From an uncultured Clostridia bacterium (GTDB taxonomy: Bacteria; Bacillota; Clostridia; TANB77; CAG-508), in contig CALXJJ010000004.1 of NCBI GenBank assembly GCA_944388605.1, positions 3,162 to 67,161 on the forward strand: a stretch of 64,000 bases of DNA, read 5' to 3'. The notes under the pieces are model-generated. The model was given only the letters and a program-made list of their open reading frames with translations. It made no database searches and had not been told where the DNA came from. The translations under genes were made by a program, and so were the position numbers. How positions within the stretch are numbered: position 1 is the stretch's first letter; each line of letters starts with the position of its first letter. Below, one piece after another: positions 3,658-58,264 of the stretch.

Positions 3658-3753
3658 ATAATCCTCACATTTCTTTTAAATTTTACATAAAAATTATTCC
3701 ACAATTTTTTCATATTTCATAGAAGAACAATCGGAAAGCCTTAAAATAAATAC

Positions 3754-4773: not shown

Positions 4774-5486
4774 TATCTTCTTCCTCCTTTATCATCTTGT
4801 GAATATAATGGTATTGTAGCTAATACTGTTAATTTTAAATTTTTTTCTATATCTTCTTCAGATTTTATGGTTGTATCTAGCATATTAGATATTAATACAT
4901 AAGCTATTGAAACAATAACTCCTATTGCCATAAAAATTGCTATATCTTTTATATGATTTATATTATATGGTTCTAAAGGAACTTCTGCTTCATCTACAAT
5001 ATGGACATTGTTTATGCTATAAATCCTTTCAACTTCAGCTGCAAAAGCTTTAACTATTTCTCCTGCAATAGCTTTAGCTTGTTGTGGATCTTCATGTACT
5101 ACATCTATTTGAATAATTTCTGTATCTTTTTTTTGAGAAACTGTTATCTTCTTCTTTAAACTTTCTTCTGTTTCATCTATTTTTAGATTTGAAATAACTT
5201 CTTTTAATACTCTTTTGCCCCTAATTAATTCACTATATGTTGAAACCAATTTCTGATTCAGTGTAATATCTGTTTGAGTAATACCTGTGGAAGTTCCTGT
5301 TTGGTCTTGTACTTGTTCATCATCTGTTTTAGCTAATACAAGTGTTGTTTCGGCTTTATATTCTGGCGTAACAAAAGCAAAAGAATAAATAATACCAATA
5401 ACAGCAAAAATTGCAATAATTAAAACAATATATATTCTTTTACTCCAAAAAATATTAAATAGACCTTTTAAATCTAATTCTTCCAT
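4773..5486 (-). CDS. Wzz/CpsC-type polysaccharide co-polymerase (chain-length determinant, BY-kinase activator)
   Basis: 237 aa. N-terminal TM helix (IYIVLIIAIFAVIGIIYSF), periplasmic coiled region, C-terminal TM helix. Translationally coupled to the BY-kinase. Confidence 0.8.
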   Translation of the reverse strand: MEELDLKGLFNIFWSKRIYIVLIIAIFAVIGIIYSFAFVTPEYKAETTLVLAKTDDEQVQDQTGTSTGITQTDITLNQKLVSTYSELIRGKRVLKEVISNLKIDETEESLKKKITVSQKKDTEIIQIDVVHEDPQQAKAIAGEIVKAFAAEVERIYSINNVHIVDEAEVPLEPYNINHIKDIAIFMAIGVIVSIAYVLISNMLDTTIKSEEDIEKNLKLTVLATIPLYSQDDKGGRR

Positions 5487-5726
5487 TTTCGTTGAATCAT
5501 TCCTTTCATTATCTTTAAAATTCGTACTATCAATTTTTTACCTTACTATTATATACTCATTATTGTGGTTTTGGCAATAGTTTATATTGATTTTATTCAA
5601 AAAACAAGAACAATAGCGTACTTCTTACATTTCTTCTACTTATAATATTTTATGAAAATTACTGTTTTCTATAATGAAATAAACTTATCATATCAATTTT
5701 AGATATAATAAGTTTATTAGCTTAAA

Positions 5727-6476
5727 TTATTTCATCATTGTTTTATATCTAATTATACAAAATACAGCAATAATAGTAATTATCAATATAGACCATAATA
5801 CAACTTGTGTAATTCCTGTTTGTGGCAATTTAGCATTAGATGTAGTACTATCTACTTTTATAACTTTATTTTCTACTTTATCACTCATAGTATTTTGCAT
5901 TTGATTTTCTTCTTCTGTAATATTTTGCGTAATCTCATTTTGTATTTGATTAGCATCTTCTTGTCCCTGTTCTTCACTAACACGTGTAATATTTACATCT
6001 ATTTCTACATCTGGAACTTCAACTTCAGTTCCATCTGTTCCTGAAACAATAATGTCTGATAATAATATTTTAGTTTTCATATTTTGATTAAAAGTATCTT
6101 TTAATTTAAAAGTCATTTCAGCAATAGTTGAATTAGATTTTGTTTCTGTGTTTCCTGCAATTAATAATACTTTTGTAGATGGATTATAATTTGCTTTATC
6201 CCATTCTTCGTAAGTTTTAATTGAGACCGAATCTATTACATCTTCATCATAAACTAAAAATGATTGATAACCAAGTACTGTTCCTTGTGTAACTCCTATT
6301 AAATTACCTATATTTAATTTTACAGTAAACTCATGTTCATTTGTTGGCACATTTACAATAGATGGTTCTAAATTTATCGGTATGCTTATTATTGAACCTA
6401 GTGAATATGTACTAAAACAACTTAAAGCTATTATTAAAGTAATTACTAAAATACAAACTTTTTTCATTTTTATCAT
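5727..6476 (-). CDS. LPXTG cell-wall-anchored surface protein with an N-terminal cohesin-like beta-sandwich domain
   Basis: Signal peptide MIKMKKVCILVITLIIALSC. C-terminal LPQTG followed by a hydrophobic helix and an RYKTMMK tail (sortase sorting signal). Residues ~30–165 (FTVKLNIGNLIGVTQGTVLGYQSFLVYDEDVIDSVSIK ... AEMTFKLKD ... ILLSDIIVSGTDG) fit the cohesin (PF00963) profile pattern. Confidence 0.55.
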   Translation of the reverse strand: MIKMKKVCILVITLIIALSCFSTYSLGSIISIPINLEPSIVNVPTNEHEFTVKLNIGNLIGVTQGTVLGYQSFLVYDEDVIDSVSIKTYEEWDKANYNPSTKVLLIAGNTETKSNSTIAEMTFKLKDTFNQNMKTKILLSDIIVSGTDGTEVEVPDVEIDVNITRVSEEQGQEDANQIQNEITQNITEEENQMQNTMSDKVENKVIKVDSTTSNAKLPQTGITQVVLWSILIITIIAVFCIIRYKTMMK

Positions 6477-6598
6477 TCTCCTTTTTATACAGAATACAAA
6501 ATATATAATTTATTTATATAATATCACAACATTATTTTTTTTTCTACAATATATTATATTAAGTTTGTATTACAAAAACATTACAAAAATATTACAGT

Positions 6599-8137
6599 TT
6601 AAACTTTGATTTTATTTTTTAGTTTACCTAATAATTTTTTTACATAATCTATTGCGTTTTTAAATGATTCATCTTTGTAAAAAGCTATTATTATTATTAT
6701 TGAACAAATAGCTACCATTAATATACCTTTTATAATAAAATTAAGCATTGAAACTCCATGTATTTGGTTAATTATTGTTTCACTTACAAATATCATTAAT
6801 AACAATACTATTAAAAATTTAAATTGCATTGTAAAATATCTTCGTGAACTTCTTTGAAATATTTTTTTATATAACATATAAGGTTGATACCAAAAGATTG
6901 TTAATAACTTAGCAATTGGAGTAGCAATTAATATTCCTAATAATCCTAATTTTAATCCTAGTAAAATTGATAGTATAATATTTAATATTGCTGTAAATAT
7001 TGATATATATTTAACATCTCTAAAAAGTCCTGTTGTATCTCTAAATACCCACATAGGATTTAACATTCCATTAATATAAAAACTAATAACTATTGCAATA
7101 ACTATAGAATTATTTAATATGTATTCCTTACCTATCCATAATTCTATAACATCTTTTGACAAAACTATTAATCCCACAGAAAAAATCGAAAACAGTACAA
7201 ATGCCATAAAATTTAATAATGAAAATACATTTACTTGTTTATCCCTATTATTTTCTGTATGCAAATTTCCTACACTAGCAGTTACAGCATTAAATATAAT
7301 TGAAATAGCAGTATTAATGCAATTAGTAATCATATTATAATTTGAATAATACCCTACCCATATTGTTCCTATCATGGCAGAAATAACAATATTAGGTGTA
7401 CTATTTAATATTACATTACTAAATTTAAAAATAAACATAGATTTTACATTTTGAAATAATACAAATTTTTCTTTTTTTCTCAATTCTTCATTTTTCTTTA
7501 TAAATGGATACATTTTATTTGCTTTATAAGCTATATATATGTTAGTTCCTAATGTTCCTAATAATTGTAAAATTAAATATAATATATAATTATGTGTTAA
7601 TAATAAAATAATAATTTGCAAGATAGTTTGAATTATATTAAATATTAAAGTATATAATTTAACTAAATACATTTTTTGATCTGCATTTATAATAGAACTT
7701 TTATATGCAAAGAAGTATGAAAAAGATGTATTAGCCAAAAATAATATAAAATATAATGTTAAATTTGGTATTTGAGAATCTGTTTTTACTAATACATCTA
7801 AAAAAGGTATTAGTATCAATCCTATAATAAATATTATAATTCCTATTATATTATATATTTTTTTATAAAATTGCATTAATGCTGCAAGTTTTCTTTCATC
7901 TTTTTTAGCTAATGGCTTATACATACTATAAATAATAGCATTTCCAAAACCTAATTCTGCTAATGATAATACTGTTAAAACATTTGTAAATAATCCATTA
8001 ATTCCTAAATATTCAGCTCCTAATGTTTTTATAAATACTGTTCTTGAAATAAACTGTAAAATTAAAACTGCAATTTGATTTCCAGCTCCGAAAAACATAT
8101 TACGTAATGAATTATATAGCCTTGATCTTTGCTCCAC
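6599..8137 (-). CDS. Oligosaccharide repeat-unit flippase Wzx (MOP/PST family)
   Basis: 512 aa, ~12–14 TM helices. N-terminal region NQIAVLILQFISRTVFIKTLGAEYLGINGLF is typical of PST-family flippases. Confidence 0.75.
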   Translation of the reverse strand: MEQRSRLYNSLRNMFFGAGNQIAVLILQFISRTVFIKTLGAEYLGINGLFTNVLTVLSLAELGFGNAIIYSMYKPLAKKDERKLAALMQFYKKIYNIIGIIIFIIGLILIPFLDVLVKTDSQIPNLTLYFILFLANTSFSYFFAYKSSIINADQKMYLVKLYTLIFNIIQTILQIIILLLTHNYILYLILQLLGTLGTNIYIAYKANKMYPFIKKNEELRKKEKFVLFQNVKSMFIFKFSNVILNSTPNIVISAMIGTIWVGYYSNYNMITNCINTAISIIFNAVTASVGNLHTENNRDKQVNVFSLLNFMAFVLFSIFSVGLIVLSKDVIELWIGKEYILNNSIVIAIVISFYINGMLNPMWVFRDTTGLFRDVKYISIFTAILNIILSILLGLKLGLLGILIATPIAKLLTIFWYQPYMLYKKIFQRSSRRYFTMQFKFLIVLLLMIFVSETIINQIHGVSMLNFIIKGILMVAICSIIIIIAFYKDESFKNAIDYVKKLLGKLKNKIKV

Positions 8138-41301: not shown

Positions 41302-42072
41302 ATGAAAAAATTAGATGTAGTAACAGGGAAAACCAATCAAATTCTTGTAATATCTGGTGCCAGTGGTTCTGGAAAAACAACAACTTGTGCATTACTTCAA
41401 TTCTTATATCCAAAGAATTATGCTCATATTCCTTTTGATAGAAGTAGAGCTTCCAGACCTGGAGAATTTGGCTCACGCCATGTAGATTTAGAAACAATGT
41501 TTCAAAAATATAATGATGGTGAATATTTTAACATAGCACCTGTAACTCACAATGGATACGCAGCAATACGTACTGCTGATATTAATAAAGCTTTTTCTGA
41601 TGGTAAGGTAGCTGTTATAGAATTTCCACTAGAACAAATAGCCATACTTGAAAAGAACTTTCCACAAGCAAATGTAACTGTTGTAGAACTTGTTGCACCT
41701 TCTGAAAAAGAACGTTTAAGACGATTAAAGAAAGATCACAAATATACAGACCAACGAATTGAAGGTGATGCCTATGGTTCTGGTAGGATTGAAAGATATA
41801 AAGATGATAATTTATTAACTTTAGATGACCATAATCTTGTACTTATAACAGAAAGAGATAAACTCGGTGATACTGTTTTTTCAATACATAGATATATGCA
41901 AATACAAAAATTAACATTGGAACAACTTACAAGTTTTGAAAAAAAAGAAGGTGTAAAAGGAGTTCAAAGTTTTTTAAAATCACTCCGAGTACCAAAAAAT
42001 AATTTTTCAAAAGCTGAAAATTATGAATTTTTAGAACATAAGTTGCCTCAAACTGATGACTTTGAAAGATAA
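41302..42072 (+). CDS. Guanylate-kinase-like P-loop nucleotide kinase with a C-terminal extension
   Basis: Walker A ISGASGSGKTT. NMP-binding region DRSRASRPGEFGSRHVDLETMF...YFNIAPVTHNGYAAIRTAD resembles the GMK T[RS]xPRxGE...YG motifs. 256 aa. Confidence 0.6.
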   Translation: MKKLDVVTGKTNQILVISGASGSGKTTTCALLQFLYPKNYAHIPFDRSRASRPGEFGSRHVDLETMFQKYNDGEYFNIAPVTHNGYAAIRTADINKAFSDGKVAVIEFPLEQIAILEKNFPQANVTVVELVAPSEKERLRRLKKDHKYTDQRIEGDAYGSGRIERYKDDNLLTLDDHNLVLITERDKLGDTVFSIHRYMQIQKLTLEQLTSFEKKEGVKGVQSFLKSLRVPKNNFSKAENYEFLEHKLPQTDDFER

Positions 42073-42082
42073 TATATTATAC

Positions 42083-42126
42083 AAAACAGCAGAATCAAAA
42101 ATTGATATTTTATATTCTGCTGTTTT
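42083..42126. terminator. Bidirectional intrinsic terminator between convergent operons
   Basis: aaaacagcagaat-(16 nt)-attctgctgttttt: perfect 13-bp stem with flanking A/T runs on both sides. Confidence 0.65.
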
Positions 42127-42135
42127 TAATTTACT

Positions 42136-42744
42136 CTATAAATCCTTTAAAAAATCACTATCTTTCATTATGTAATCAACTATTTCATCTGGTGTTTTAT
42201 TAGTTGTATTAATAATTTTAGTATTTGGAAATCTTTTCAATACAATATTTTTATAATGTTTTTCTACTCTCTCAAACTTATTAGTGTCTAGCAATAATTT
42301 ATCAGAACCTGTAATTTCCTTTCCTAATGCTTCACGCTCTTTAAATCTTTTTATTCTTTCTTCTATTGAAACTGTAATATAAAAAGAATCCATATCTGGA
42401 TACATGCCAAGTAGATTTTCTAAAATAGATATTTCTTCCAAGTCCTCTATATTATTTTGTTCAATTTTTGTTGCAATATATTTTATTATCCATAAAGAAT
42501 CTTGTAAAATTGGGCTATCTTCTCTATAATCTGCAATGTCTTTTTTTACAGTATTTTGAAGGAGTGGTTTCCATTCTTCTGGTGGTAACCAAGTATCTCT
42601 CTTTCGTACTTTTTCAATTGTATCTATTGGGGTTAAAAATTTTTTTTGTACCTTAAAAGTATTGGGCTTTGCTATATCAATTTTCTTAATAATTGTTGTT
42701 TTACCTGAAAAGTCCATACCAGTAAATAACTTTATTTTAGACAT
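42136..42744 (-). CDS. Thymidylate/dNMP-kinase-like P-loop kinase
   Basis: Walker A FTGMDFSGKTT. Overall TMK-like length (202 aa). Last gene of a tightly packed six-gene minus-strand operon. Confidence 0.5.
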   Translation of the reverse strand: MSKIKLFTGMDFSGKTTIIKKIDIAKPNTFKVQKKFLTPIDTIEKVRKRDTWLPPEEWKPLLQNTVKKDIADYREDSPILQDSLWIIKYIATKIEQNNIEDLEEISILENLLGMYPDMDSFYITVSIEERIKRFKEREALGKEITGSDKLLLDTNKFERVEKHYKNIVLKRFPNTKIINTTNKTPDEIVDYIMKDSDFLKDL

Positions 42745-42777
42745 TTTATCACCTTTTAATTTTTATAATTTATATAT

Positions 42778-43404
42778 TTATATTTTTATCAAATTTAAAA
42801 TTTTCTCAGTTCCATCATTGATAGAGCTCTCTGATGAAGTATCAATAATAATTGAATTATTGCATTCGTTAGCTTTTCTTTTTAATTCGTCATATACTAA
42901 CTTTAAAAATTTAGGATGCTCTCTGTAAAAATCATGTACTGGTGAATTTTTACTTTTCTCCATCCTATCTATAATAGTTTCGTATGGAGGAATACAAAAT
43001 ACATTTGATGATGGCTCTAATAGAATATTATTTTCTACCAAAGTTTCTGAAATACGATATACATTATAATCTTTATTAAAATACTCTCCATATGCGTTTA
43101 TATATGTAGTAATTGCATCATAGTATCTATCCTGTAAAACAATTGTATTCGTATTTTCTAGACATGGTCTAATAACATTCTTTGTATTTATTATTAGGTC
43201 TGTAAAAAAATATAGTGTAGTAATTGTCATATCTTTTTTGCCCAATAGTTTTTTAAATTCTCTACCTATATCGGTATATGTCATAGCGCCATGATTATAA
43301 ATAGGTTGATAGCCCATCTCTTTAATCTTTTCGCTTAAATTATTGCATAAAGTAGTCTTTCCACTACAACAAATTCCTTCAAAAACAATAAAATTATTAT
43401 TCAT
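42778..43404 (-). CDS. Thymidylate-kinase-like P-loop kinase
   Basis: IVFEGICCSGKTT (compare TMK IVFEGIDGSGKTT) and the LQDRYYDAITTYINAYG DRY/lid region. Confidence 0.65.
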   Translation of the reverse strand: MNNNFIVFEGICCSGKTTLCNNLSEKIKEMGYQPIYNHGAMTYTDIGREFKKLLGKKDMTITTLYFFTDLIINTKNVIRPCLENTNTIVLQDRYYDAITTYINAYGEYFNKDYNVYRISETLVENNILLEPSSNVFCIPPYETIIDRMEKSKNSPVHDFYREHPKFLKLVYDELKRKANECNNSIIIDTSSESSINDGTEKILNLIKI

Positions 43405-43414
43405 TGTAGCCCTC

Positions 43415-44068
43415 CTATTTTTTATTAATTAATGTATATCCACGAAAATACTTACTATCTTTTGTTAATTCAACAGGTAGACTACTATTTAAGATAATCT
43501 TATTAGCGGTTAGCAAATGTTCATCATAATTATAATCCCCAGTTGTAGTATTGGGTTTTATCCAATCTTCAATTTCTAGCATGTCTTCATATACTGAATC
43601 TGTCTCCTCTTTTTCATAATATTTAACTTTATCATATGTAACATATAAACGGTCAGAATTTTTTTCTATTATTCCAACATATCTCATCATTTTTGCGTAT
43701 AATACTGGTCTTAGTCCATTTCTAACATCCAAATCCAATTCTTTAATAAATTCATTAACATCTTTATATTGCCCTCTTAGTTTTGTACCAAGTTCTAGTT
43801 TTGAAACATATGGTTTGTTGTCTTCACACATATTTTTTTTATACAAGAACCCATTAAATTGCTCTGTAATATGTTTGCTACCTCTCATTACATCTCCTCT
43901 TTTTAGAACTGTTAGATTATTGTCGTCATAGTATGTTTCGTGCTTTTCATTAGTTCTTGTTTCAACTAATTTATATCCTTTGTCATAAAAAACTTTTAGA
44001 ACTTCTTCCAAAGATAAAATGCCTTTTATTAAGTATTTAAGTTCTCTTTCATAATTTTCAAATTCCAT
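43415..44068 (-). CDS. CYTH-domain protein (triphosphate tunnel metalloenzyme: CyaB-type cyclase / triphosphatase family)
   Basis: N-terminal ERELKYLI (the ExExK signature of CYTH). 217 aa. Confidence 0.6.
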   Translation of the reverse strand: MEFENYERELKYLIKGILSLEEVLKVFYDKGYKLVETRTNEKHETYYDDNNLTVLKRGDVMRGSKHITEQFNGFLYKKNMCEDNKPYVSKLELGTKLRGQYKDVNEFIKELDLDVRNGLRPVLYAKMMRYVGIIEKNSDRLYVTYDKVKYYEKEETDSVYEDMLEIEDWIKPNTTTGDYNYDEHLLTANKIILNSSLPVELTKDSKYFRGYTLINKK

Positions 44069-44082
44069 ACTTTACACCATCC

Positions 44083-44886
44083 TTATTTAATACTTATAAA
44101 TGTTCCCGTTTCTCTCGGAATATTAATAGCACCATTTTTTATTCTTATATTTTCAAAATATTGATACAAACTAGCCAGATTTTCTTCTGAAAATCCAGAA
44201 ATAGAGGTAGTTGATTTTAGCCATTCCATCAAATCATCCGTTTTTGTAATTGCTAATACATTTTCGTAATCAAACCTTTCTACAGAAGAAAAATATTTTT
44301 TTAATATTTCGCTTCCATTTTGAAGATTAAAAGGTAATTGCTCTGTAAAAGCTGTCGAATCTGGGTTAAACTGTTTTATTGCTTCATGTAAAAATGGTCT
44401 CATACCACCATTTCCATCTGTAGCTGAATAAAAATGTCCGCCTTTTTTTAAAACTCGTTTTACTTCTGATAATGCTTTATCTAAATCTGGCACATGAAAA
44501 AGCATATGATTCGCGATGACCATATCAAAAGAGTTGTCTTCAAACGGTATTGATTGAATATCAATTTTTTCAAATGAAACATTATCATATTGCGAATATT
44601 TTTCTTTTACTAAATCTAGCATTCCATCTAAAAAATCTGACAAAATAAGTTTGCACCCTTTTGGAAGCTTGTCTATTCTATTGTTCCAATGGCTTCCATT
44701 TCCACACCCTAGTTCTAAAATATGAAAATTTTCCTCAAATTCATACTTATCAAATAACCAATCTGCAAAGCTATACTTATTTGTCGTATATTTCTTATAA
44801 AAATTAATTCTCATTGATAAGTTTTTGTCATTAGAAAATTGCTTTTCAACATTCTGTGTTTTATTCATAATAGACATAAAAATCAC
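44083..44886 (-). CDS. Class I SAM-dependent methyltransferase
   Basis: Motif I ILELGCGNGSHW and motif post-I KLILSDF. 267 aa. Confidence 0.8.
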   Translation of the reverse strand: MIFMSIMNKTQNVEKQFSNDKNLSMRINFYKKYTTNKYSFADWLFDKYEFEENFHILELGCGNGSHWNNRIDKLPKGCKLILSDFLDGMLDLVKEKYSQYDNVSFEKIDIQSIPFEDNSFDMVIANHMLFHVPDLDKALSEVKRVLKKGGHFYSATDGNGGMRPFLHEAIKQFNPDSTAFTEQLPFNLQNGSEILKKYFSSVERFDYENVLAITKTDDLMEWLKSTTSISGFSEENLASLYQYFENIRIKNGAINIPRETGTFISIK

Positions 44887-44904
44887 CTCTATTTAAAATT
44901 TTAT

Positions 44905-46497
44905 TTATCTTATAAATGGATTTTCTTTTCCATCATAATTTAATCCGTATTTATTACATAAGTTTTTTCCTTTATAATTCATTTCATCATAAAATCTAGC
45001 GTGTTTGCAAATTTGTGTAGTAATTAATTGATTTAAGTTTTCTTCTGAAATTCCATGTTCTATTTCTTCCAATACTATTTGCATAAAATCTAAATCTAAT
45101 AGCTTTAATTGAAAGTATAAATCATAAAACTCTTTTTCTCCTGTTGAATCTATGGCTTTAGGTGAAGAAATAGGATCTATTATCATATCATACAATTTCA
45201 TGTGAGACTTGTGCCACCTTTTAAGTGCATTATAAGCTAATTTAACTTTTGGGTCTACTATATCATATTTATTATTATCATAAACATCATTTTTTATGAT
45301 TTTATCTTCTTTTTTCAATTTTTCGGTATATAGTGTTCCATCTGCTGCAAACATCTCTGAAAAAATGCCTTTGGTTATTATCCAATCATATTCTCTTAAA
45401 AATTCATAATTTTCTTTTAGTTCTTCAAATGTTGTATTATCATCAAATAGAATAAAACCTGCTTGGACATAAATACCATGTTTTTTTAATATATCTAATG
45501 CTCTTTTGTTATCTTCTAAACTGGCACTCTTATTCATCCTCTTTAATGCAGTATCCGAACCATTTTCTATTCCACATGCAAATGAGTGAAAACCTGCTTC
45601 TTTTAAATATTCCATTTTTTTATCTTCTACTTGATCCGCCTTCAAAGAGCCTCTTAATGATACGTTTATTCCTCTCGCTTTTATCTTATCTCTGAACTCT
45701 TTTGCCCATCTTTCATCTCTTTCTTTTTCTAAAAAACTATCATCAATAACTTTTATGTATTTTACCCCCATATTTTGTAACTGCTCTAGTTCATCAATTA
45801 TATTGTCTACACTTCTTCCTCTCCATTTATTTCCTATCGATAATTTATTAAAAGCATTTACAGAACAAAATAAGCAGTTTCCCATACAGCCCCTAGCTGT
45901 TAATATATTTACTGTTGACTTCCTCTCTAATGCCATATTCATTGTATCTCTAGAAGGAAATGGTATATCATCTAAATCTTTTATAAGTTCTCTTTTTTGA
46001 GTTTTAATTATTTTCCCTCCATCTTCATACACAATTCCTTTAATTTCATTAAGTTCTTTATCACTATTTCCAGTAAAATAATCGCAAACTTCAACAATAG
46101 TCTGCTCACCTTCACCAATCATAGCAATATCAAAGATGCCATCTTTCACAAATCTTTGTGGGTTAAACGATGGTCCAAATCCTCCACACATTAGTTTTAT
46201 ATTTGGATTTATACTCCTTATTTTTTTTGCTAGTTCAATAGATTTATCATTATTTGACATATAGCATGATATTCCAACAATTGAAACGTCTTTTTTATTT
46301 ATTATTTGCTTTAATACTTCATTATCTTCTAAGTTTCCCAGCCATCCATCTATTATTTCTACATTATATCCATTTTTTCTTAATACAGCTGTCAAATATG
46401 CTAATCCAAGATTTTCTTCGGATGTTCTATGTGTATCTGGTGATAATGTTGTAAGTATTATTTTGCTTTCATTTTTTTTATTATTTTTATCTTCCAT
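44905..46497 (-). CDS. Cobalamin(B12)-binding radical SAM enzyme
   Basis: N-terminal B12-binding Rossmann region. CMGNCLFCSV (CxxxCxxC) radical SAM cluster. 530 aa, typical class-B radical SAM methylase-like architecture. Confidence 0.85.
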   Translation of the reverse strand: MEDKNNKKNESKIILTTLSPDTHRTSEENLGLAYLTAVLRKNGYNVEIIDGWLGNLEDNEVLKQIINKKDVSIVGISCYMSNNDKSIELAKKIRSINPNIKLMCGGFGPSFNPQRFVKDGIFDIAMIGEGEQTIVEVCDYFTGNSDKELNEIKGIVYEDGGKIIKTQKRELIKDLDDIPFPSRDTMNMALERKSTVNILTARGCMGNCLFCSVNAFNKLSIGNKWRGRSVDNIIDELEQLQNMGVKYIKVIDDSFLEKERDERWAKEFRDKIKARGINVSLRGSLKADQVEDKKMEYLKEAGFHSFACGIENGSDTALKRMNKSASLEDNKRALDILKKHGIYVQAGFILFDDNTTFEELKENYEFLREYDWIITKGIFSEMFAADGTLYTEKLKKEDKIIKNDVYDNNKYDIVDPKVKLAYNALKRWHKSHMKLYDMIIDPISSPKAIDSTGEKEFYDLYFQLKLLDLDFMQIVLEEIEHGISEENLNQLITTQICKHARFYDEMNYKGKNLCNKYGLNYDGKENPFIR

Positions 46498-46510
46498 TTA
46501 TACTTCTTCC

Positions 46511-47635
46511 TTACTTTTTTGGTTTTCCAATCCAAGTACATAGATAGTTTTCATGTACTAATTGTTTATTTCCCTTTTTATAATTAATATTACTTTCTAT
46601 CTCAACATCTTTAAAGCAAAAAGGATCTCTAGCATATAAATCTTTTTCTCCAGTAGCACATTTTTTGTATGTATACGCCATTGCGAAGCACCCACCTCTA
46701 CATATATCTGCTTTTTCGCAGTCCTTGCATCCTTCTATGTTTTTATAATTTTCTTTTCTTATTTTAAAAGCCTTGAACTGTTCCGAATTAATTATGTCAA
46801 AAATATCATCTGTTAACAAATCTCCTACTCGATAGTCGTGCATATATACACAAGGTGAAACTGGTATTTTTCCATCTGGTGTTATTGAATTAATTCTCAT
46901 GGAATATGTTCCACAAGCACAACCTTTAACCTTATAATTGTCTGTTATTCCTGATAATGTAGGTTCACTCAATTCTACTGTATCACATTTTTCAAATAAA
47001 TATTTATAATTTTCTAATACTTGTTCTTTGCTTGGTACAAGTTCAAAATGCTCTTTTTGGATTGGTTTTATCAAATTAAATCTAATGTTTGAATCATATT
47101 TTTTAGCAAGTTCTAACAAAGCATCTATTCTGTCTTTTGTAAAATCCCAATTCATTGCACACATTATAATTCCTGACTCTATATTATTTTCTTTACAAAT
47201 TTCTAGAGCTTGAATAGCATATTTATATACATCTCCACCCCTATTTTCATTATGTTCTTGTTCAAAAGGAGAATCTAAACTAATGTCTACGTCATTTAAT
47301 AAATTTAAACACTCTGGATACATTTTCTTTAATGCTATAAGACTAATTCCTGATGTAGTTATTCCAACTTTTATTTTCTTTTTATTTAGCTCTTTTAGTA
47401 TATATGGCAACATACTTTTGCTGACATCTAATCCGTTAGTAAATATTGGTTCATTTCCACCAAGATTAACTGTTTCTACATTTAATTTTTGAATTTGCTC
47501 AATTACTTTATCAACTATTTCTTTAGTTAAATTTTTGCCTTTGTTTCTTACAGCAAAAGAATAACAATGCTTACATTTACAAGGACAATCATTGCCCAAA
47601 GTCCAACCTATATTTTTTATCATATATTCCTCCAT
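46511..47635 (-). CDS. Radical SAM enzyme with C-terminal SPASM/twitch auxiliary-cluster domain
   Basis: GNDCPCKCKHCYS (CxxxCxxC). C-terminal CxxCxxxxxCxxxC-type cluster GCKDCEKADICRGGCFAMAY. 374 aa. Confidence 0.85.
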   Translation of the reverse strand: MEEYMIKNIGWTLGNDCPCKCKHCYSFAVRNKGKNLTKEIVDKVIEQIQKLNVETVNLGGNEPIFTNGLDVSKSMLPYILKELNKKKIKVGITTSGISLIALKKMYPECLNLLNDVDISLDSPFEQEHNENRGGDVYKYAIQALEICKENNIESGIIMCAMNWDFTKDRIDALLELAKKYDSNIRFNLIKPIQKEHFELVPSKEQVLENYKYLFEKCDTVELSEPTLSGITDNYKVKGCACGTYSMRINSITPDGKIPVSPCVYMHDYRVGDLLTDDIFDIINSEQFKAFKIRKENYKNIEGCKDCEKADICRGGCFAMAYTYKKCATGEKDLYARDPFCFKDVEIESNINYKKGNKQLVHENYLCTWIGKPKK

Positions 47636-47705
47636 ATCTTATAACAGATTATAGTATTTATGTGATTATTTAATTGCTATATGCTAAATCTTATAATTTT
47701 CTTTA

Positions 47706-48375
47706 ACTATATTAAAATTTTATTTGTTCCAAATTTATTAATTGATTATTTCTAAAAATCATTTTTAGTAAACAAGGAGATGTTATATCTAAAACTGTAT
47801 TGTTGTATACTAATTTAACATCTTTATTTACTTCGCACCAATTTAGTAAGAAAAATTTTATTGAACCGCCGATGACTTACAACGGCAATTTTTTTACCTT
47901 CATATTCGTTTAATATTCTATCAACGAATTCTGTCATTCGCTTTTTGGTTTCTTCAGCACTTTCTCCATCAGAAGTTTTAAAATTTCTATCTAATAGTTG
48001 CTCTTGAGATGGATCTCTTGTTTTTTTGTCTTTCATAAATTCTCCAAGTTCTTTTAAGTTTCCTAATTTTCTCTCGCTCAAATTACTGTCTAAATTAATT
48101 GGCAAATTATTAGAATCAGCAATGTATTTTGCTGTGGCTTTTGCTCTAGTATAACTACTTGACCATATAACGTCAATATTTGACAGTTCATTATTTTCAC
48201 TTAATCTTTTAGATTGTTCTTCTCCTTGTACTGATAGAATCTCTTTTTCGTTAATCATTTGGGAATCTTCTTTCGTATTTCTAATTCCATTTTCGTCAAT
48301 TGTTTCAGCATGTCTTATTAAATAAATTATCGTATCTTTCATTATATATCTCCTTATCTTATTTTTACTATTCAA
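47706..48375 (-). pseudogene. Histidine phosphatase (phosphoglycerate-mutase-like) gene interrupted by a +1 frameshift at about 47866–47872
   Basis: N-terminal catalytic LIRHAET (RHG motif). The annotated ORF 47824..48375 ends 13 aa after ...VVSHRR. Removing one base (catCggcgg) gives VVSHGGSIKFFLLNW..., the conserved SHGG motif, and about 50 further aa down to the stop at about 47706. Confidence 0.65.
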
Positions 48376-48466
48376 TTATATCAATAATATCGATTATTTT
48401 CAATGATTTGAACTAATAAATTTAATAATGAAATATATGGTTAACTTCTTGCAATTATTCATTTTA

Positions 48467-48738
48467 CCAAATTTGTTATTAATTTCCATATTTTATGGTG
48501 TATTTTTACACCATAAAATATACTTTTTAATAACTTTTCATTTTTATATTAGCAATTAACTTGTTTCAATTTTACTTATTTTTTGTTTTAATATGAGAAG
48601 TTAAACCTCTATTTTTATTAGTATACATTTTATTAAAACTCGTCAATCTCTTTATATTAAAGCATTTTGGCATTTTTTATATTTATATAATAAAAAAAAT
48701 AATGTAGCATTCAGTACCCCTCTATGTCAACTATTTTG
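48467..48738. repeat. Left copy of a ~270-bp direct repeat flanking the 2H/MPE/AbiE cassette
   Basis: Near-identical to 52208–52458. Contains the palindrome tatggtgtatttttacaccata and the ...gtagcattcagtacccctctatgtcaactat end. Confidence 0.8.
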
Positions 48739-49174
48739 CCTCATATTTGTACAAATAATGTTTGTTTTCTATATTTTCAACTCAATTTTTTAACTATTTT
48801 AGATTAAATATTTAATATATTAATAATTTTTTTATAAAATCTTTTTATTTAAAGCAAACAAAAATTTTATTAAATTTATATTTTTTTCTTCTATAATTTA
48901 TACAACTTCTAGTTGTATATTAAAAAGTCAAAATTCCACTATTCTCAATAAAAAATACAGTTTTTAATTTATAAATATTGGGTTTTTTTACAAAAAAAAT
49001 ATAGCCAATAGGAGAGTATTTTTACTCCAAAATTGACTATGTTTTTATCTGTTTTTTACACTTTTTTCTCATTTTTATGGATTTTTATGGATTTCATTGC
49101 TCCAAAATTGCTCCAAAACCACTTTTGTAAATTACCCCTCCGTTGCAGCTCTAAGGTTAGGGAATTTTATGTTG

Positions 49175-49220
49175 TGCCATTTTGAATGTCCGAGACATAC
49201 TCTTACCTCCTTTATTTTTT
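49175..49220 (-). repeat. Duplicated copy of the yebC 5' end plus RBS (identical to 37564–37609)
   Basis: gtgccattttgaatgtccgagacatactcttacctcctttattttt occurs at both sites. The 49.1 kb copy carries only the first ~40 nt of coding sequence. Confidence 0.75.
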
Positions 49221-49654
49221 TCCTTTATTGCATAGGAAATTTCGTTAGAAATTTCTGGAGCAACAAGGTTAAGTTTCCTTAGACCGTGCGTATTTGCGAA
49301 GCAAAACGCACATTTGGCGAAGCCACTTTTCTTATTTTCAGGGGTTTCAGCCTTTTAATGCCTGATTTTACCCATTTTTTAGCTTACCTAAACTTTATTG
49401 ATTTTTAGGGATTTTCGAGGTTCGTAATTAGAAATGATTGCTCCAAAATTACTCCAAAAAATCTTATGTAAAGTTATTAATGTACTTAAATTGAACTTTT
49501 GTTTTCTTATTATTTTTTATCTTAAACAAAAATACTAAATTATTTTATCACATTATTTTTTATTTGTGTAGTATTTTTACAAATATTTTTTGTATTTTAC
49601 TCATGTGAGTAGTAGCGCATTTTCTTAAGTAAATACATATTTTTTAAACTATTT

Positions 49655-50170
49655 TTATAAACTTATCCTGAATTCTATGATTGATTCTTCATTTTTTCCT
49701 ATTTGCTCTACTATAATAGTATCAACTATTGTTTCAAACTCCTCATCAATTTCTATTTTCTCATTAGGATTATTTGTACTTCCAATAGTTATATGAGGCT
49801 CGTAATTATACTTTTCTATATCAACATCTTTTAATATATTTTTATAAATTCTATGGTTGATTTTATTTATTACTTTCTTTCCTTCTTGTATATTCAAAAA
49901 TATGTAATATGTATTAATTCTATTATCTTTTCTTAAAGTTACTCCTTTACATTTTATTTTAAAAGGACTAATATCCTTAATAATATTTAATAATTGTTGT
50001 TTTAATTCTTCATTAGAAATATCGCTTTTAAATGGAAATGCTAAAGTTATATGAGGCTCTATTATATTAAATAACTCATCATATTTTTCTCTTATCTTTT
50101 GAATTTTATTAATATTTTTAAATTTGGGAATAATTAATATATCCCTTTTTCCTTCATTTTTATAATTCAT
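49655..50170 (-). CDS. 2H phosphoesterase superfamily protein (LigT/2'-5' RNA ligase-like)
   Basis: Two H-x-T-x motifs (EPHITLAF and EPHITIGS) at the spacing expected for 2H-fold enzymes. 171 aa. Confidence 0.6.
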   Translation of the reverse strand: MNYKNEGKRDILIIPKFKNINKIQKIREKYDELFNIIEPHITLAFPFKSDISNEELKQQLLNIIKDISPFKIKCKGVTLRKDNRINTYYIFLNIQEGKKVINKINHRIYKNILKDVDIEKYNYEPHITIGSTNNPNEKIEIDEEFETIVDTIIVEQIGKNEESIIEFRISL

Positions 50171-50185
50171 AAAATAACTCCTACA

Positions 50186-50683
50186 TTAATTATCATTTAA
50201 TAGTTTTATATTTTCTATACTTACAGGTGTATAATGGACTACATCACAAGAAACACATACATGATTTTTCTTATCAAATTTTCTATCTAGTGGTTTATCA
50301 TGTATATGCCCAAAAATGTTAATTTGGTTTTCTTCAACTCTTTCTGTTGGTGTATGTGTTAATAATAAATTATCTAAAATAATTTTCTTCTTATAGACCT
50401 CTAAAAATCCTATTTCTTTCCATGTATTTATACCAATTTTAAAATCATGATTTCCTCTAAGTAATATTTTTGTTCCATTTAAGCTTCCTACTAATCTCTT
50501 TACTTCTTCAAACTTTCCAAATCCAACATCTCCTAAATGATATACTGTATCCGTTTCTTTAACAATAGAATTCCATCTTTTTATTATATATTCATTCATT
50601 TCATCAGTATTTTTAAATGGTCTATGACAGTATTTAATTATATTTGCATGATTAAAATGTGTATCTGCTATAAAATATATCAT
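50186..50683 (-). CDS. Calcineurin-like metallophosphoesterase (YfcE-like)
   Basis: MIYFIADTHFNH ... HLGDVG ... LRGNHD ... GHIHD. These are the canonical MPE metal-binding motifs. Confidence 0.75.
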   Translation of the reverse strand: MIYFIADTHFNHANIIKYCHRPFKNTDEMNEYIIKRWNSIVKETDTVYHLGDVGFGKFEEVKRLVGSLNGTKILLRGNHDFKIGINTWKEIGFLEVYKKKIILDNLLLTHTPTERVEENQINIFGHIHDKPLDRKFDKKNHVCVSCDVVHYTPVSIENIKLLNDN

Positions 50684-50700
50684 ATGTTCTCCTTTTCTGC

Positions 50701-51555
50701 TTAAACAGTTAAAATTTCTATGTCTAAACTTGAAATAAATTCTTTTATTTCTTTTATGATTTCTTCAAACTTAATATCATTTGCATATTTATTCTTTTTA
50801 GCATACCCATTCCATAAACTTACAATTCTATCATATGAAGATATACTATCTAAAATCTGTTCATAATCTTTTAAATAGTCAAGCGATTCTCTTTTATCAA
50901 ATGTATTTTTTATTGATAGTTTTAAATTCTTAATATCAATATTATCCTTAAATTCGTTTAAAAACATATGTACATCGTAGTAATCTTTCATTCTGCTATT
51001 GTATTGTCCTCTTCTTAAAATAGTTTCAATTTTTTCTGATATTATTGTTTCAGCATTATATGTATAAATTAATATCTTTTTATCTTCAAATAATGATGGA
51101 TAACTATACTCTAACTCTTTTGGTACAACTTTATCTCCTGTAGAAATATCAATATCTAAATTAATTTTAAGATTTTCTAATTTTCCAATTAAGTGATATT
51201 TATTCCCACCATATTCATCTTCTTCTCTTATATCAGTTATATCAACCAACTCAAATTTTACTCCGTCTTTTAAATCAATATTTAATATTTCGTTTAAAAC
51301 TTTTACCATCTGCTCTTTGGAAATATCTAGTCCTTTAATTGTTGTATCCATATCTCTTGTAGTTCTATTATTGATTCCAAATAGTGCTGATAACAATAGA
51401 CCACCTTTTAATATAAAATTTTCTTGATATTTTGAAACTGAAATTCTTTCTAAGATTCTCTCAAACATAAATCTTTGTAACAGTTCATAATGATTTAGAT
51501 GATATTTTCTCTCTAGTTCTTTTGATTTTTGTTTAAGTTCTTTATATTTTATCAC
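50701..51555 (-). CDS. Nucleotidyltransferase AbiEii/AbiGii toxin family protein (type IV TA / abortive infection)
   Basis: FILKGGLLLSALFGINNRTTRDMDTTI matches the DUF1814 / AbiEii pattern. 4-nt overlap with the upstream AbiEi-like gene. Confidence 0.75.
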   Translation of the reverse strand: MIKYKELKQKSKELERKYHLNHYELLQRFMFERILERISVSKYQENFILKGGLLLSALFGINNRTTRDMDTTIKGLDISKEQMVKVLNEILNIDLKDGVKFELVDITDIREEDEYGGNKYHLIGKLENLKINLDIDISTGDKVVPKELEYSYPSLFEDKKILIYTYNAETIISEKIETILRRGQYNSRMKDYYDVHMFLNEFKDNIDIKNLKLSIKNTFDKRESLDYLKDYEQILDSISSYDRIVSLWNGYAKKNKYANDIKFEEIIKEIKEFISSLDIEILTV

Positions 51556-52145
51556 TTCATTAAGACCTCCATTATAGTAGTTAATTTTTCATATACATTA
51601 AATATTCTAGCATATTCATCTAATAGTTTTAAATTTTTATTTTTTAAATTAAAATAACTTTTCAAAATTTTGTTATATAACTCTATATCATACTCATCTT
51701 GTTTTTTTAGCATATCACATATACATCTTTCTAAATTATATACAATTATAGGATTACCATATGGACTTGTTATAGTAATTTTACCTATATTTAACTTTTC
51801 TTTAGATACATAGTGGATTTTTACATTTTCTCTAATTTTTTTATGAGAATATGTAGTAACATCAAGTTCATATGGTGCTCTTTCACTAATTCCCAGCAAG
51901 TGAAACGCAGTATTGTATGAATAAATAATATTGTTATAACGTTTTTGCAAAATATAGTATTCATCTTCAATTAATTTATTATCAATATATAAACCTCTTG
52001 ATACTCTTCTAATTATTCCATTTTTTATTAATTCTGGAATATATATTCTTTGAATTCCGTTTTGTTCTATTTCATTAGATGTTATATAACCATTGTTTCT
52101 TTTTAAAAATTTTTCTATTTTTTTTATATTCATATTAACCTCCAT
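51552..52145 (-). CDS. AbiEi-family antitoxin / transcriptional regulator
   Basis: 197 aa. N-terminal wHTH-like region and C-terminal domain with the size and arrangement of AbiEi. Translationally coupled to AbiEii. Confidence 0.65.
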   Translation of the reverse strand: MEVNMNIKKIEKFLKRNNGYITSNEIEQNGIQRIYIPELIKNGIIRRVSRGLYIDNKLIEDEYYILQKRYNNIIYSYNTAFHLLGISERAPYELDVTTYSHKKIRENVKIHYVSKEKLNIGKITITSPYGNPIIVYNLERCICDMLKKQDEYDIELYNKILKSYFNLKNKNLKLLDEYARIFNVYEKLTTIMEVLMK

Positions 52146-52207
52146 TACAAACGTACTACTATTTTATCATATTGTTGTACGTTTGTAAATATTAGACTTA
52201 AAATTTA

Positions 52208-52458
52208 TTAAATTTGTTATTAATCAATATAATTTATGGTGTATTTTTACACCATATCATATAGTTTTGAATAACCTTTTTATATTAACAATTTACTTAT
52301 TTGATTTCACTCATTTTTTTTAATATGAGAAGTTAAACCTCAATTTTTATTAGTGTACATTTTATTAAAGCTCGTCACTCTCTTTATATTAAAGCATTTT
52401 GGCATTTTTTATAATAAAAAAAATAATGTAGCATTCAGTACCCCTCTATGTCAACTAT
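52208..52458. repeat. Right copy of the ~270-bp direct repeat
   Basis: Matches 48467–48738. Ends exactly at the stop codon of the truncated nitroreductase gene. Confidence 0.8.
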
Positions 52459-52853
52459 ATTGTTGAAAATGGATTTAATCTTGAAACATACTTATCATCT
52501 AATTCTTTACACTTAAATACTGGAATTATTACATAAGGTGCATTTTTTAGCATTGTATATTGTCTTGGCATTGCATAAGCATACATCTTCTGACCTAGAG
52601 TAATTGGATATGGTCTTGGAATGTTTAAATATTTTTCACTATCAAATTTATCTGCTATCTTTTTTGCATATTCAAAAGCATATTCTTTTTCTTCATCTGT
52701 TTTTAATATAATATAACTCCAGTTGCGATTATGATTCCATGTTGGTGCTTTGTTTCCTGCATCTAATATTTTTTTAATAGTTTCAAAGTCAACCTCCTTA
52801 TCTAAAAATTCTCTTGTAGTTCTTCTCTTATTTATTACTTCATAAAATTCCAT
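52455..52853 (-). CDS. Nitroreductase-family protein, probably C-terminally truncated at the repeat boundary
   Basis: MEFYEVINKRRTTREF is the typical nitroreductase N-terminus. Only 132 aa; it ends where the direct repeat begins. Confidence 0.55.
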   Translation of the reverse strand: MEFYEVINKRRTTREFLDKEVDFETIKKILDAGNKAPTWNHNRNWSYIILKTDEEKEYAFEYAKKIADKFDSEKYLNIPRPYPITLGQKMYAYAMPRQYTMLKNAPYVIIPVFKCKELDDKYVSRLNPFSTI

Positions 52854-52865
52854 TTTTAACTCCTC

Positions 52866-53090
52866 CTACATTTTTTCCTTGTAATTTTTAGGATTTTTTA
52901 TCTTATCCCAATATTTAATATCTACAAAAGTTCCCCATTCTTCGAAATGTCCTGTAAATCTTTTCATAAATGAAGCATAGCAATATTTACAAGCATGAGA
53001 ACAACCAATGTATGGGTTTACAGAATAATCTGATACAGGCAAGTTTGATTTAGTTAAAATATTTTTGACTTTTATTTCTTTTATAATCAT
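52866..53090 (-). pseudogene. N-terminal fragment (about 74 aa) of a radical SAM / spore-photoproduct-lyase-family (SplB-like) gene
   Basis: IKEIKVKNILTKSNLPVSDYSVNPYIGCSHACKYCYASFMKRFTGHFEEWGTFVD is the canonical SplB/COG1533 N-terminus with CxxxCxxC, but the ORF stops after about 74 aa; full-length proteins are about 300 aa. Confidence 0.55.
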
Positions 53091-53091
53091 T

Positions 53092-53535
53092 TTATTTATT
53101 CTCCATTCGTCTTTTCTCATATTCACAAATATTGTGATAAACAATATTTAAACTGTGTATAAGTGCTTTTTTATCTTCTTTTTCTAATCCTTTTGCAATA
53201 ATATCTTCAACATCATCTCTAAAATTTCCTAATTCTTCTGCAAGCGATTGTCCTTTTTTACTTAAAGTTATTGCATTAAATTTTGAATTTTTTTTATCTT
53301 GCTTTTTATTTATAAGTTTCTTTTCTTGCAATTTCCCCACTAGGTCTATTACTGTGGTATGTCTTATTCCCAAAAATTCTGCTAATTCTTTCTGCGAACA
53401 GCTTTTATTTTCTTTAATATAATCTAATACTTCTAACTGTCTTGCTGTAATATCATATTTTCTTAAATTATAATCTAACTCTGATAAAAGTCTATCAGAG
53501 ATTTTTTTTATTAAAAGTCCTGTATTTTCTTGCAT
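53092..53535 (-). CDS. MarR-family transcriptional regulator
   Basis: 147 aa. wHTH region SQKELAEFLGIRHTTVIDLVGKLQEKKLI. Confidence 0.8.
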   Translation of the reverse strand: MQENTGLLIKKISDRLLSELDYNLRKYDITARQLEVLDYIKENKSCSQKELAEFLGIRHTTVIDLVGKLQEKKLINKKQDKKNSKFNAITLSKKGQSLAEELGNFRDDVEDIIAKGLEKEDKKALIHSLNIVYHNICEYEKRRMENK

Positions 53536-57597: not shown

Positions 57598-58264
57598 TTT
57601 AATTACTCCCTTCTAAAAAACAAGGTTAATTTACTTTAGTTCGTGCATATTTGCGAAGCAAAACGCACAATTTTCTTATTGTATAAGAAAAATTGACTTT
57701 CTCTTTGAAATTTCAATATTTTTAACGATTTTTCCTATTCAACAAAATAACAACATTGCACAGAAAAATTGCATAGCAATTTTTCGTGTCGACAAATCTT
57801 TACGCTTCTTCGAGAACTTAAATATATATAATTAAGTTAGAAAAGTTCTCGTGAAGCGAGATTTGTCCTTTTGAAAATTTGTAGCTACTTGTTTTTCAAT
57901 TTCTGTAATTATTTTAATACCTGTTCTTATATTTGTAAAGTAGGCACTTTAAAGTGGTATAGTTTCTCCAAGGTAACTTTTATTCATTTTACTGTAATAG
58001 GAGCTATAAAATTTTTTTGGGAATTTATATTCTTTTAAGAAATAAATATCTAAAATGATACTATTGTTTATTTTACTTAACTTTCTTTTATTTACTTTTA
58101 GAATTTATTTTGATATAATTGTATTAAATTTAGGAGATGATGTATTTGAAACCTATTTTAGATTCTATGGTGCAATGGGGAAATGAATATAAGAACCTAA
58201 CCCACTAACAAAATCAAAGATTTTCAATAGATACCCCAGAACCTTGTTACTACGTAATAGAGAA

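Follow-up and report, generated by a model that had tools for sequence, protein, structure and literature searches.

Do direct repeats on either side of a gene cluster mark the ends of one mobile element? We investigated this question in a 64,000-nt stretch of DNA from an uncultured Clostridia bacterium (GenBank assembly GCA_944388605.1, contig CALXJJ010000004.1, positions 3162–67,161; hereafter the window), in which two copies of a noncoding repeat (R_left and R_right, together R) flank the genes of an AbiEi antitoxin, an AbiEii toxin, a metallophosphoesterase (MPE), and a 2H phosphoesterase (2H). A sequence-only reading had taken these four genes for one mobile cassette with R at its ends, inserted in a nitroreductase gene; R would then be attL/attR sites or a target duplication. 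We favor, with moderate confidence, another history: the 5′ end of yebC would be a hot spot for insertions and the region a mosaic formed there, in which two tandem islands, not one cassette, each start with a 5′ remnant of yebC (yebC′), a noncoding segment (nc), and R. The features discussed are listed in Table 1.

Table 1 Features of the window around the two R copies, in order of position (ig, native intergenic region between 2H and yebC; E1, island defined in the text)
Feature	Position	Strand	Characteristics
Intact yebC	36862–37623	minus	attR-like 51-bp core at 37559–37609
Remaining E1 cargo	37610–47823	minus	Two radical-SAM enzymes, methyltransferase, dTMP-kinase-like protein, pyrophosphatase, UvrD-like helicase (Pfam)
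Histidine phosphatase (HisPhos, branch 1)	47824–48342	minus	PF00300 3e-29; first cargo gene after R_left
R_left	48463–48738	minus	276-bp repeat; promoter-like site 48730→48701; palindrome 48475–48534
nc, noncoding part of island left arm	48739–49168	minus	430 nt; contiguous with R_left; 82–92% to L035 2069–2468
yebC′ remnant, attL-like	49169–49219	minus	Ribosome-binding site, ATG, 27 nt; 98% to 37559–37609
Species-specific segment of ~98 nt	49230–49326	minus	With 54-nt hairpin motif; not in L007, L035, L053, L054
ig	49327–49654	minus	Tandem motif ATTTTGGAGTAATTTTGGAGCAAT; homologous to 2H-yebC spacers of L007 (98.5%), L035 (82%), L053 (77–81%)
2H phosphoesterase (LigT/YjcG-like)	49655–50170	minus	PF13563 1e-17; PF02834 6e-8; PDB 2d4g YjcG 3e-9
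MPE, small calcineurin-like, phage-associated family	50186–50683	minus	PF00149/PF12850; phrog_547 1e-45
AbiEii DUF1814 nucleotidyltransferase toxin	50701–51555	minus	PF08843 1e-36; PADLOC 1e-94; 4-nt overlap with AbiEi
AbiEi antitoxin	51552–52145	minus	PF13338 2e-7; PADLOC AbiEi 1e-58
R_right	52204–52462	minus	259-bp noncoding repeat; promoter-like TTGACA-N18-TGnTACATT 52454→52425; imperfect palindrome 52209–52282
Nitroreductase/R_right junction	52445–52462	minus	9-nt microhomology CAAT(A/T)T(A/G)GT; three-way alignment
Truncated nitroreductase	52455–52853	minus	PF00881 profile positions 1–105 of 167; last gene of MarR/radical-SAM/nitroreductase trio

The two copies of R

The window has a G+C content of 25%, contains the spoIIIA operon, and carries nearly all of its genes on the minus strand. 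R_left and R_right align in direct orientation with 85.5% identity over 276 columns (blastn, E = 1e-87); the alignment contains three indels of 3–8 nt each and one block of 49 nt that is identical in both copies. The sequence-only reading was right that direct repeats flank four co-oriented genes, but at this identity and with three indels the copies are homologous rather than "near-identical," as it had called the ~270-bp repeats. Both copies contain its palindrome, TATGGTGTA-N5-TACACCATA, which can be lengthened to imperfect arms of 28–35 nt. Stop codons occur throughout all six frames of either copy. The two copies share an end point ~12 nt beyond the palindrome, after which different genes follow, and each lies 60–120 nt upstream of a start codon. 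Three patterns from within R (24–37 nt) have precisely two occurrences apiece in the window and none in 100 shuffles. The same gene order across both repeats recurs in no fewer than eight independent metagenome contigs, so the arrangement is real and not an assembly artifact.

The sequence-only reading had proposed to give up its claim if the repeat turned up at many unrelated loci. Our searches did not show this: a 21-mer from the R core matched one GTDB representative genome, a Clostridium metagenome-assembled genome (locus L035), and had no match in IMG/VR or the JGI metagenomes. A 26-mer from nc had no match in the JGI metagenomes. When the whole block was compared with PLSDB plasmids and INPHARED phages (blastn), only weak gene-level matches were returned (67–81%), and the neighborhoods of two of these were uninformative. 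Base composition gave no island signal.

A recurrent junction at the 5′ end of yebC

Between 2H and R_left lies a gene-free stretch of 916 nt (48739–49654), on which the sequence-only reading was silent. Comparison of positions 48381–49700 with the window itself revealed a 51-bp direct repeat in this stretch (49169–49219 vs. 37559–37609, 98% identity), and the copy at 37559–37609 comprises the ribosome-binding site, the start codon, and the first 27 coding bases of yebC. From this repetition of the yebC 5′ end we recognize an island of 11.6 kb, E1 (37610–49168), between yebC′ and the intact yebC. E1 opens with a noncoding arm of ~700 nt, nc followed by R_left. That the repeats bound a four-gene cassette is contradicted at this point: R_left continues into the 430-nt nc and yebC′, the three are contiguous in L035 as well, and they form one conserved unit.

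The yebC start motif was searched in all loci, and four remnants (window, L035, L047, and L049) break at the identical base, after AAATGGCAYAAYAT. Each of them runs on into homologous arm sequence (...CTTAGAGCTGCAACGG...) and then into a tandem 11–12-mer, which reads TTTTGGAGCAAT in the window and L035 and TTTTGGCACAAT in L047 and L049 (overall TTTTGG(AG/CA)CAAT). The same tandem repeat, in the same lineage-specific spelling, is also found upstream of yebC or yebC′. The cargo behind the shared arm differs in all four loci.

The tandem 11–12-mer, TTTTGGAG(C/T)AAT or TTTTGGCACAAT depending on the lineage, is present in 2 to ~5 copies (window 49096–49131, 49437–49472, and ~37715–37745; L054 2086–2143; L047/L049 ~7660–7690 and 7900–7930). 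Such repeats may serve as arm sites for an integrase, as iterons, or as an operator.

A 149-aa C-terminal fragment of a tyrosine recombinase lies ~630 nt from the attL-like junction of L049. This fragment found nothing in the window (tblastn); its relatives at a threshold of 1e-20 are two fragments, and the one context retrieved, L145, is not at yebC. Six-frame translations of nc and R matched nothing in Pfam at E ≤ 1, so the arm holds no detectable decayed integrase. Rfam returned no match at the gathering threshold in the whole window and none at E ≤ 1 in 48000–53000, and ARAGORN found no tRNA or tmRNA in the window. One literature search, whose top-ranked matches did not mention yebC, gave no paper in which the gene is an integration target.

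In the window, ATGTCT of yebC is followed by an additional C, which puts the canonical start out of frame; an upstream ATG is used and adds 12 residues (37559–37623). The same extra C follows ATGTCT in the yebC of L007. Replacement of the 5′ end of the gene by element DNA could produce such a start.

Gene order in related loci

Contexts of 2H homologs were retrieved via exact-protein look-ups and compared with the window by blastn. The most informative order for the arm is that of L035, which reads, in the direction of transcription, a 3′ remnant of 2H, a short spacer (ig), yebC′, nc (82–92%), and the first 38 nt of R (97% conserved), followed by 41 nt left of AbiEii, a C-terminal piece of MPE, a frameshifted 2H (92.7%), ig (82%), and an intact yebC (86.8%). 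Given this gene order, yebC′-nc-R is a single unit that in an ancestor of L035 stood directly before AbiE-MPE-2H. R_right would then be the leftover of such a yebC′-nc-R arm.

Upstream of the L035 arm are a 1473-aa coiled-coil protein (3385–7806) with a P-loop-like N-terminus and no Pfam match, and then a BclA_C-domain protein (2589–2993). The former may be an uncharacterized SMC-like defense ATPase.

The four genes between the repeats occur separately in relatives, which speaks against one cassette. L053–L055 have AbiEi-AbiEii (92–95%) joined directly to 2H-ig-yebC (78–81%), with neither MPE nor R, so that MPE between AbiEii and 2H is a single-gene insertion or deletion relative to these loci. 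The homology of L053 to the AbiE module starts at ~52215, ~70 nt upstream of AbiEi and at the inner edge of R_right. This edge of R is therefore a module boundary, and it falls inside the R-to-R unit that a cassette bounded by R would require to be whole. L056 and L057 carry a gene for a Schlafen/AlbA_2-type ATPase, 2H (85.5%), and yebC, and no AbiE; L047 has 2H (84.7%) followed by an inserted island, with a copy of MPE (88.6%) ~2.3 kb downstream of 2H; and in L050–L052 a lone 2H (78%) lies amid Fic and acetyltransferase genes. In L007, AbiEii′-MPE-2H-ig matches the window at 98.5% up to the yebC core, beyond which identity is 75.6% in yebC and 66–70% in spoIIIA. As L007 is without the window-specific 98 nt, a chimeric assembly is unlikely. 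In five loci (L007, L035, L053, L054, and L056), 2H lies directly upstream of yebC, with the target uninterrupted. By these comparisons the four genes differ in their histories: 2H is the usual neighbor of yebC in relatives, and AbiE is a 1.5-kb module with a promoter-like site of its own.

Proteins of the Schlafen/AlbA_2-HATPase_c_4-HTH type take the place of AbiE upstream of 2H or lie inside the yebC island (L056 5109–6233, L057 174–1559, and L047 8320–9793).

The nitroreductase junction

The nitroreductase gene is cut short at the right repeat, as the sequence-only reading had observed: 132 residues remain vs. 208 aa in homologs (closest homolog P0002, 95% identity), and the outer edge of R_right lies no more than a few bases from the point where homology stops. 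No remnant of residues 133–208 was found anywhere in the window (tblastn; residues 1–132 only). We aligned the right junction of the window with the left copy in the window and with the intact gene in L029; the three meet in a 9-nt microhomology, which indicates that the junction between nitroreductase and R is a deletion and not a target-site event. Recombination did take place at the nitroreductase gene, but insertion of a cassette into it is not supported. The nearest intact nitroreductase, that of L029, has an unrelated downstream context. The empty site for which the sequence-only reading proposed to look (an intact nitroreductase; for a cassette with R ends, also a single repeat) was not found among the conspecific contigs read, all of which carry the block.

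The junction also bears on the cassette. That R_right abuts a truncated nitroreductase and that the direct repeats flank four tightly spaced co-oriented genes is what one would expect of an element with R ends, but the 3′ part of the nitroreductase gene lies neither beside R_left nor elsewhere in the window; because this part is gone, excision by R × R recombination would leave the gene truncated. Moreover, no recombinase is present and the repeats are 15% diverged. Together with the conserved R_left-nc-yebC′ unit and the related loci, these observations largely refute one mobile cassette, to which we give very little credence.

The radical-SAM gene between MarR and nitroreductase (52866–53144; join 52872/52887) has an internal deletion of 629 bp in the window, L016, and L060. 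In most conspecific contigs the same gene, flanked by MarR and nitroreductase, is intact (286 aa).

A proposed history of two tandem islands

The two tandem islands that we favor would have arisen in three steps. An older island, E2 (arm-R-AbiEi-AbiEii-MPE-2H-ig), would have sat at yebC. A related island, E1, would then have integrated at the same core, so that two islands stood in tandem and each contributed an R copy from its own diverged arm. Finally, a deletion at the 9-nt microhomology would have fused codon 131 of the nitroreductase gene to the first bases of R_right, removing the nitroreductase 3′ end and the yebC′-nc part of E2. The divergence of the R copies (15%) is about equal to the interspecies divergence of nc, ig, and yebC (13–18%), which makes a recent duplication of R within this genome unlikely.

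The neighborhood is visibly decaying. Beside the 629-bp radical-SAM deletion, a 571-bp deletion removes part of AbiEii in one conspecific strain, L014 (window equivalent 50859–51431), an 8.6-kb deletion in E1 (46763→38104) is found in three contigs, and 2H is frameshifted in two loci, L013 and L035. The L014 deletion is compatible with a dispensable or costly toxin and proves nothing; the AbiEii deletion and the 2H frameshifts are signs of relaxed selection on the block.

Several points weigh against two tandem islands. No integrase or recombinase gene was found in or near either island in the window (Pfam, PADLOC), and no circular form or excision product was seen. The full R copies known are two only, a single decayed locus, L035, is the source for the full left arm of E2, and the promoter-like match in R is one of 55, shuffles of the region giving 50. 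Five look-ups (14–22 contigs each, partly overlapping) returned no conspecific strain without E1 or the AbiE block, so current mobility in the species of the window is unproven. Finally, the shared yebC′/arm junction could descend from one ancient insertion instead of repeated site-specific events.

The last point can be developed into an alternative, which we judge unlikely. One ancient insertion in yebC would have made the yebC′-nc-R arm, and the second R would have come from segmental duplication or from Campbell-type reinsertion of an R × R circle (R-AbiE-MPE-2H-ig-yebC′-nc); cargo differences would reflect later gene turnover, and no site-specific integrase would be involved. The window, with no integrase, agrees with this. 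So does the divergence of the arm between species (67–82%), which is about that of yebC and ig, as vertical descent predicts, and the 2H 3′ end-ig-yebC′ to the left of the L035 arm is what a Campbell insertion via 2H-ig-yebC homology would produce. However, the yebC core is precisely where identity in L007 drops from 98.5 to 75.6%, as would suit a site-specific boundary better than a random end point of homologous recombination; the tandem 11–12-mers to the left and right of the core covary between lineages, as integrase arm sites do; the L049 island contains an integrase fragment; and 15% divergence of R within one genome requires great age or different sources. We therefore retain the two tandem islands as the preferred history.

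Function of R

The identical 49-nt block of R holds TTGACA-N18-TGnTACATT directed toward the cargo; after it come a ~190-nt leader and the palindrome. Although the support is weak, the first cargo gene of each island probably has in R a promoter that points inward and a leader that bears a hairpin. If this were its main role, R could have been kept in two copies for regulation in its own right, either as a promoter that comes with a structured leader or a small RNA or as the operator of a shared regulator; it would serve both the AbiE and the HisPhos/radical-SAM operons, and island history would be secondary. The promoter-containing block is identical in copies otherwise 85% alike, the start of R is strongly conserved in L035, both copies stand close before a start codon, and the RNA fold has a z-score of about −3, mainly from the palindrome. 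On the other side, R had no Rfam match even at the relaxed threshold, AbiE does without R in L053–L055 and has a promoter-like site of its own, promoter-like matches are not enriched over shuffles of this AT-rich region, and two full copies are too few for covariation to be assessed. We regard a purely regulatory explanation of the repeats as improbable.

Functions of the genes between the repeats

The four genes are separated by gaps of −4, 17, and 15 nt. Pfam, PADLOC, PHROGs, and PDB all bear out what the sequence-only reading had said of them: an AbiE pair, a 2H phosphoesterase with paired HxTx motifs, and a calcineurin-like phosphoesterase.

AbiEi and AbiEii form an antitoxin-first two-gene operon in which AbiEi corresponds to COG5340 and the DUF1814 toxin has the aligned Asp and Thr: AbiEii matches the Streptococcus agalactiae AbiEii (PDB 9hlo_B, 2e-44), with T66 aligned to T65 and D194 to D192. 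Gene callers place the AbiEi start at 52133, which gives a protein of 193 aa with an N-terminal winged helix; its own promoter-like site is at 52189→52161, and an exact-sequence look-up did not find this 193-aa protein on record. In S. agalactiae, T65 accepts the phosphate by which the toxin is silenced, and D192 is required for activity, as D192A attenuates the toxin (bioRxiv 10.64898/2026.01.19.700257). Silencing is by antitoxin-induced autophosphorylation; a host Ser/Thr phosphatase dephosphorylates AbiEii in vitro, and the phosphatase that reactivates it in vivo was left open (bioRxiv 10.64898/2026.01.19.700257). AbiE has been described as a toxin-antitoxin system of type IV, and type VII has been proposed (bioRxiv 10.64898/2026.01.19.700257; see also PMC3985639). 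The related MenT toxins extend tRNA 3′ ends (PMC11541572). Because of the operon structure, the aligned T66 and D194, and the activity of MenT, AbiEi/AbiEii is expected to be an autonomous abortive-infection toxin-antitoxin pair. By analogy with the family we infer that the toxin is a tRNA 3′-end nucleotidyltransferase, inactive through antitoxin-induced autophosphorylation.

The translation of MPE contains the metal-binding motifs D7-T-H9, G51-D52, G77-N-H-D80, and GHIH, and its scores against PF00149 and PF12850 are above the cut-offs. That of 2H contains H40-I-T42-L and H126-I-T128-I, the two H-x-T/S-x motifs that, in a fold of ~170–190 aa, define the 2H superfamily. Both proteins score under the NCBIfam equivalog cut-offs (for 2H, 30 bits vs. 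65.7 in TIGR02258, the ThpR/LigT equivalog of RNA 2′,3′-cyclic phosphodiesterases, and 49 vs. 129 in PRK13679). There are 112 MPE relatives in IMG/VR, and neither 2H nor AbiE lay within 4 kb of the phage MPE in any of the 80 loci retrieved; no AbiEii relatives were found in IMG/VR.

Could the four genes nevertheless work together? In a four-gene variant of AbiE, MPE, as a dedicated phosphatase, would remove the inactivating phosphate from Thr66 of AbiEii and so rearm the toxin, and the tRNA 3′ ends targeted by the toxin would be substrates of 2H. We hold this to be very unlikely. Since near-identical AbiE modules occur without MPE, and MPE and 2H occur elsewhere without AbiE, the evidence leans against an obligate link among the four, and the comparative data lend no support to an obligate partnership of MPE or 2H with AbiE. 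By analogy with their families, MPE and 2H are probably independent accessory phosphoesterases, cotranscribed with AbiE. They may still be a lineage-specific add-on to it.

Cargo of E1 and a hairpin motif

PADLOC assigned the B12-binding radical-SAM protein of E1 to candidate PDC-M51A (7e-16), the dTMP-kinase-like protein to PDC-M51B and VakA, the SPASM radical-SAM protein to pVip (weakly), and the UvrD-like helicase to GajB models. By these matches, the E1 cargo looks like a nucleotide-modifying defense cluster, and the candidate matches fit a defense-island hot spot. The defense-like matches concern 37610–47823, especially 42778–43404, 44905–46497, 46511–47635, and 38502–40670.

A bulged hairpin, GTGCGTTTTGC-TTC-GCAAATACGCAC when read on the minus strand, characterizes a 54-nt motif of which the window has two copies (49262–49315 and 57619–57672). 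Each copy precedes a start codon on the minus strand by 20–90 nt, and the motif may represent a small element, either mobile or regulatory.

Comparison with known systems and significance

Both parts of the locus are of known kinds: its AbiE system, and the probable tandem islands around it in the 5′ end of a gene. The locus resembles other AbiE systems in its antitoxin-first operon with a 4-nt overlap, the winged helix of AbiEi, and the match of AbiEii to 9hlo_B, and differs from them in the two phosphoesterase genes within 17 and 15 nt, an extension that is not conserved (MPE is missing in L053–L055). The two HxT motifs of 2H and its match to Bacillus subtilis YjcG (PDB 2d4g) are those of YjcG/LigT enzymes, and the DxH, GD, GNHD, and GHxH motifs of MPE are those of small phage-type calcineurin-like phosphoesterases (phrog_547; Aquifex aq_1665, PDB 1xm7); unlike members recognized by the NCBIfam equivalogs, both stay below the cut-offs, and they have no conserved link to each other or to AbiE.

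SXT/R391 elements integrate in the 5′ end of prfC. Islands with dusA-specific integrases also lie in the 5′ end of a protein-coding gene (PMC4482086). The yebC islands share with these the position in the first codons of a housekeeping gene, the flanking repeat of the 5′ end of that gene (51 bp, 98%), the element-proximal copy that restores a functional 5′ end (in yebC, with an alternative ATG farther upstream), and the single break point in several genomes with tandem stacking and different cargo. They differ in having no integrase in the window, only the fragment in L049, and in the unusually long noncoding left arm of ~700 nt, which is common to islands with different cargo.

We also considered an integron cassette array, which the locus resembles in its co-oriented genes, an imperfect palindrome of 60–74 nt between them, and a module junction at the foot of the hairpin, as in attC cassettes. 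We rejected it: there is no intI, the palindrome ends in GTTATTA...TAATAAC and not in RYYYAAC...GTTRRRY, a repeat unit measures 270 bp, and each "cassette" would comprise several genes.

Taken alone, an AbiE locus in a variable defense-gene region is ordinary. As a worked example, the region shows how cassette-like flanking repeats can be the arms of neighboring islands, and it counsels caution in calling the ends of elements. The main curiosities that remain are the long shared noncoding arm and the candidate reactivation of phosphorylated AbiEii by a phosphoesterase. In a group of low-GC, spore-forming gut Clostridia, yebC appears to have at its 5′ end a hot spot for insertions, which collects defense-type cargo: AbiE, Schlafen-like ATPases, and a viperin-like/PDC-M51-like radical-SAM cluster. 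If the shared arm of ~700 nt is a true cis-acting module for mobilization or expression, it would be a possible marker for new defense cargo.

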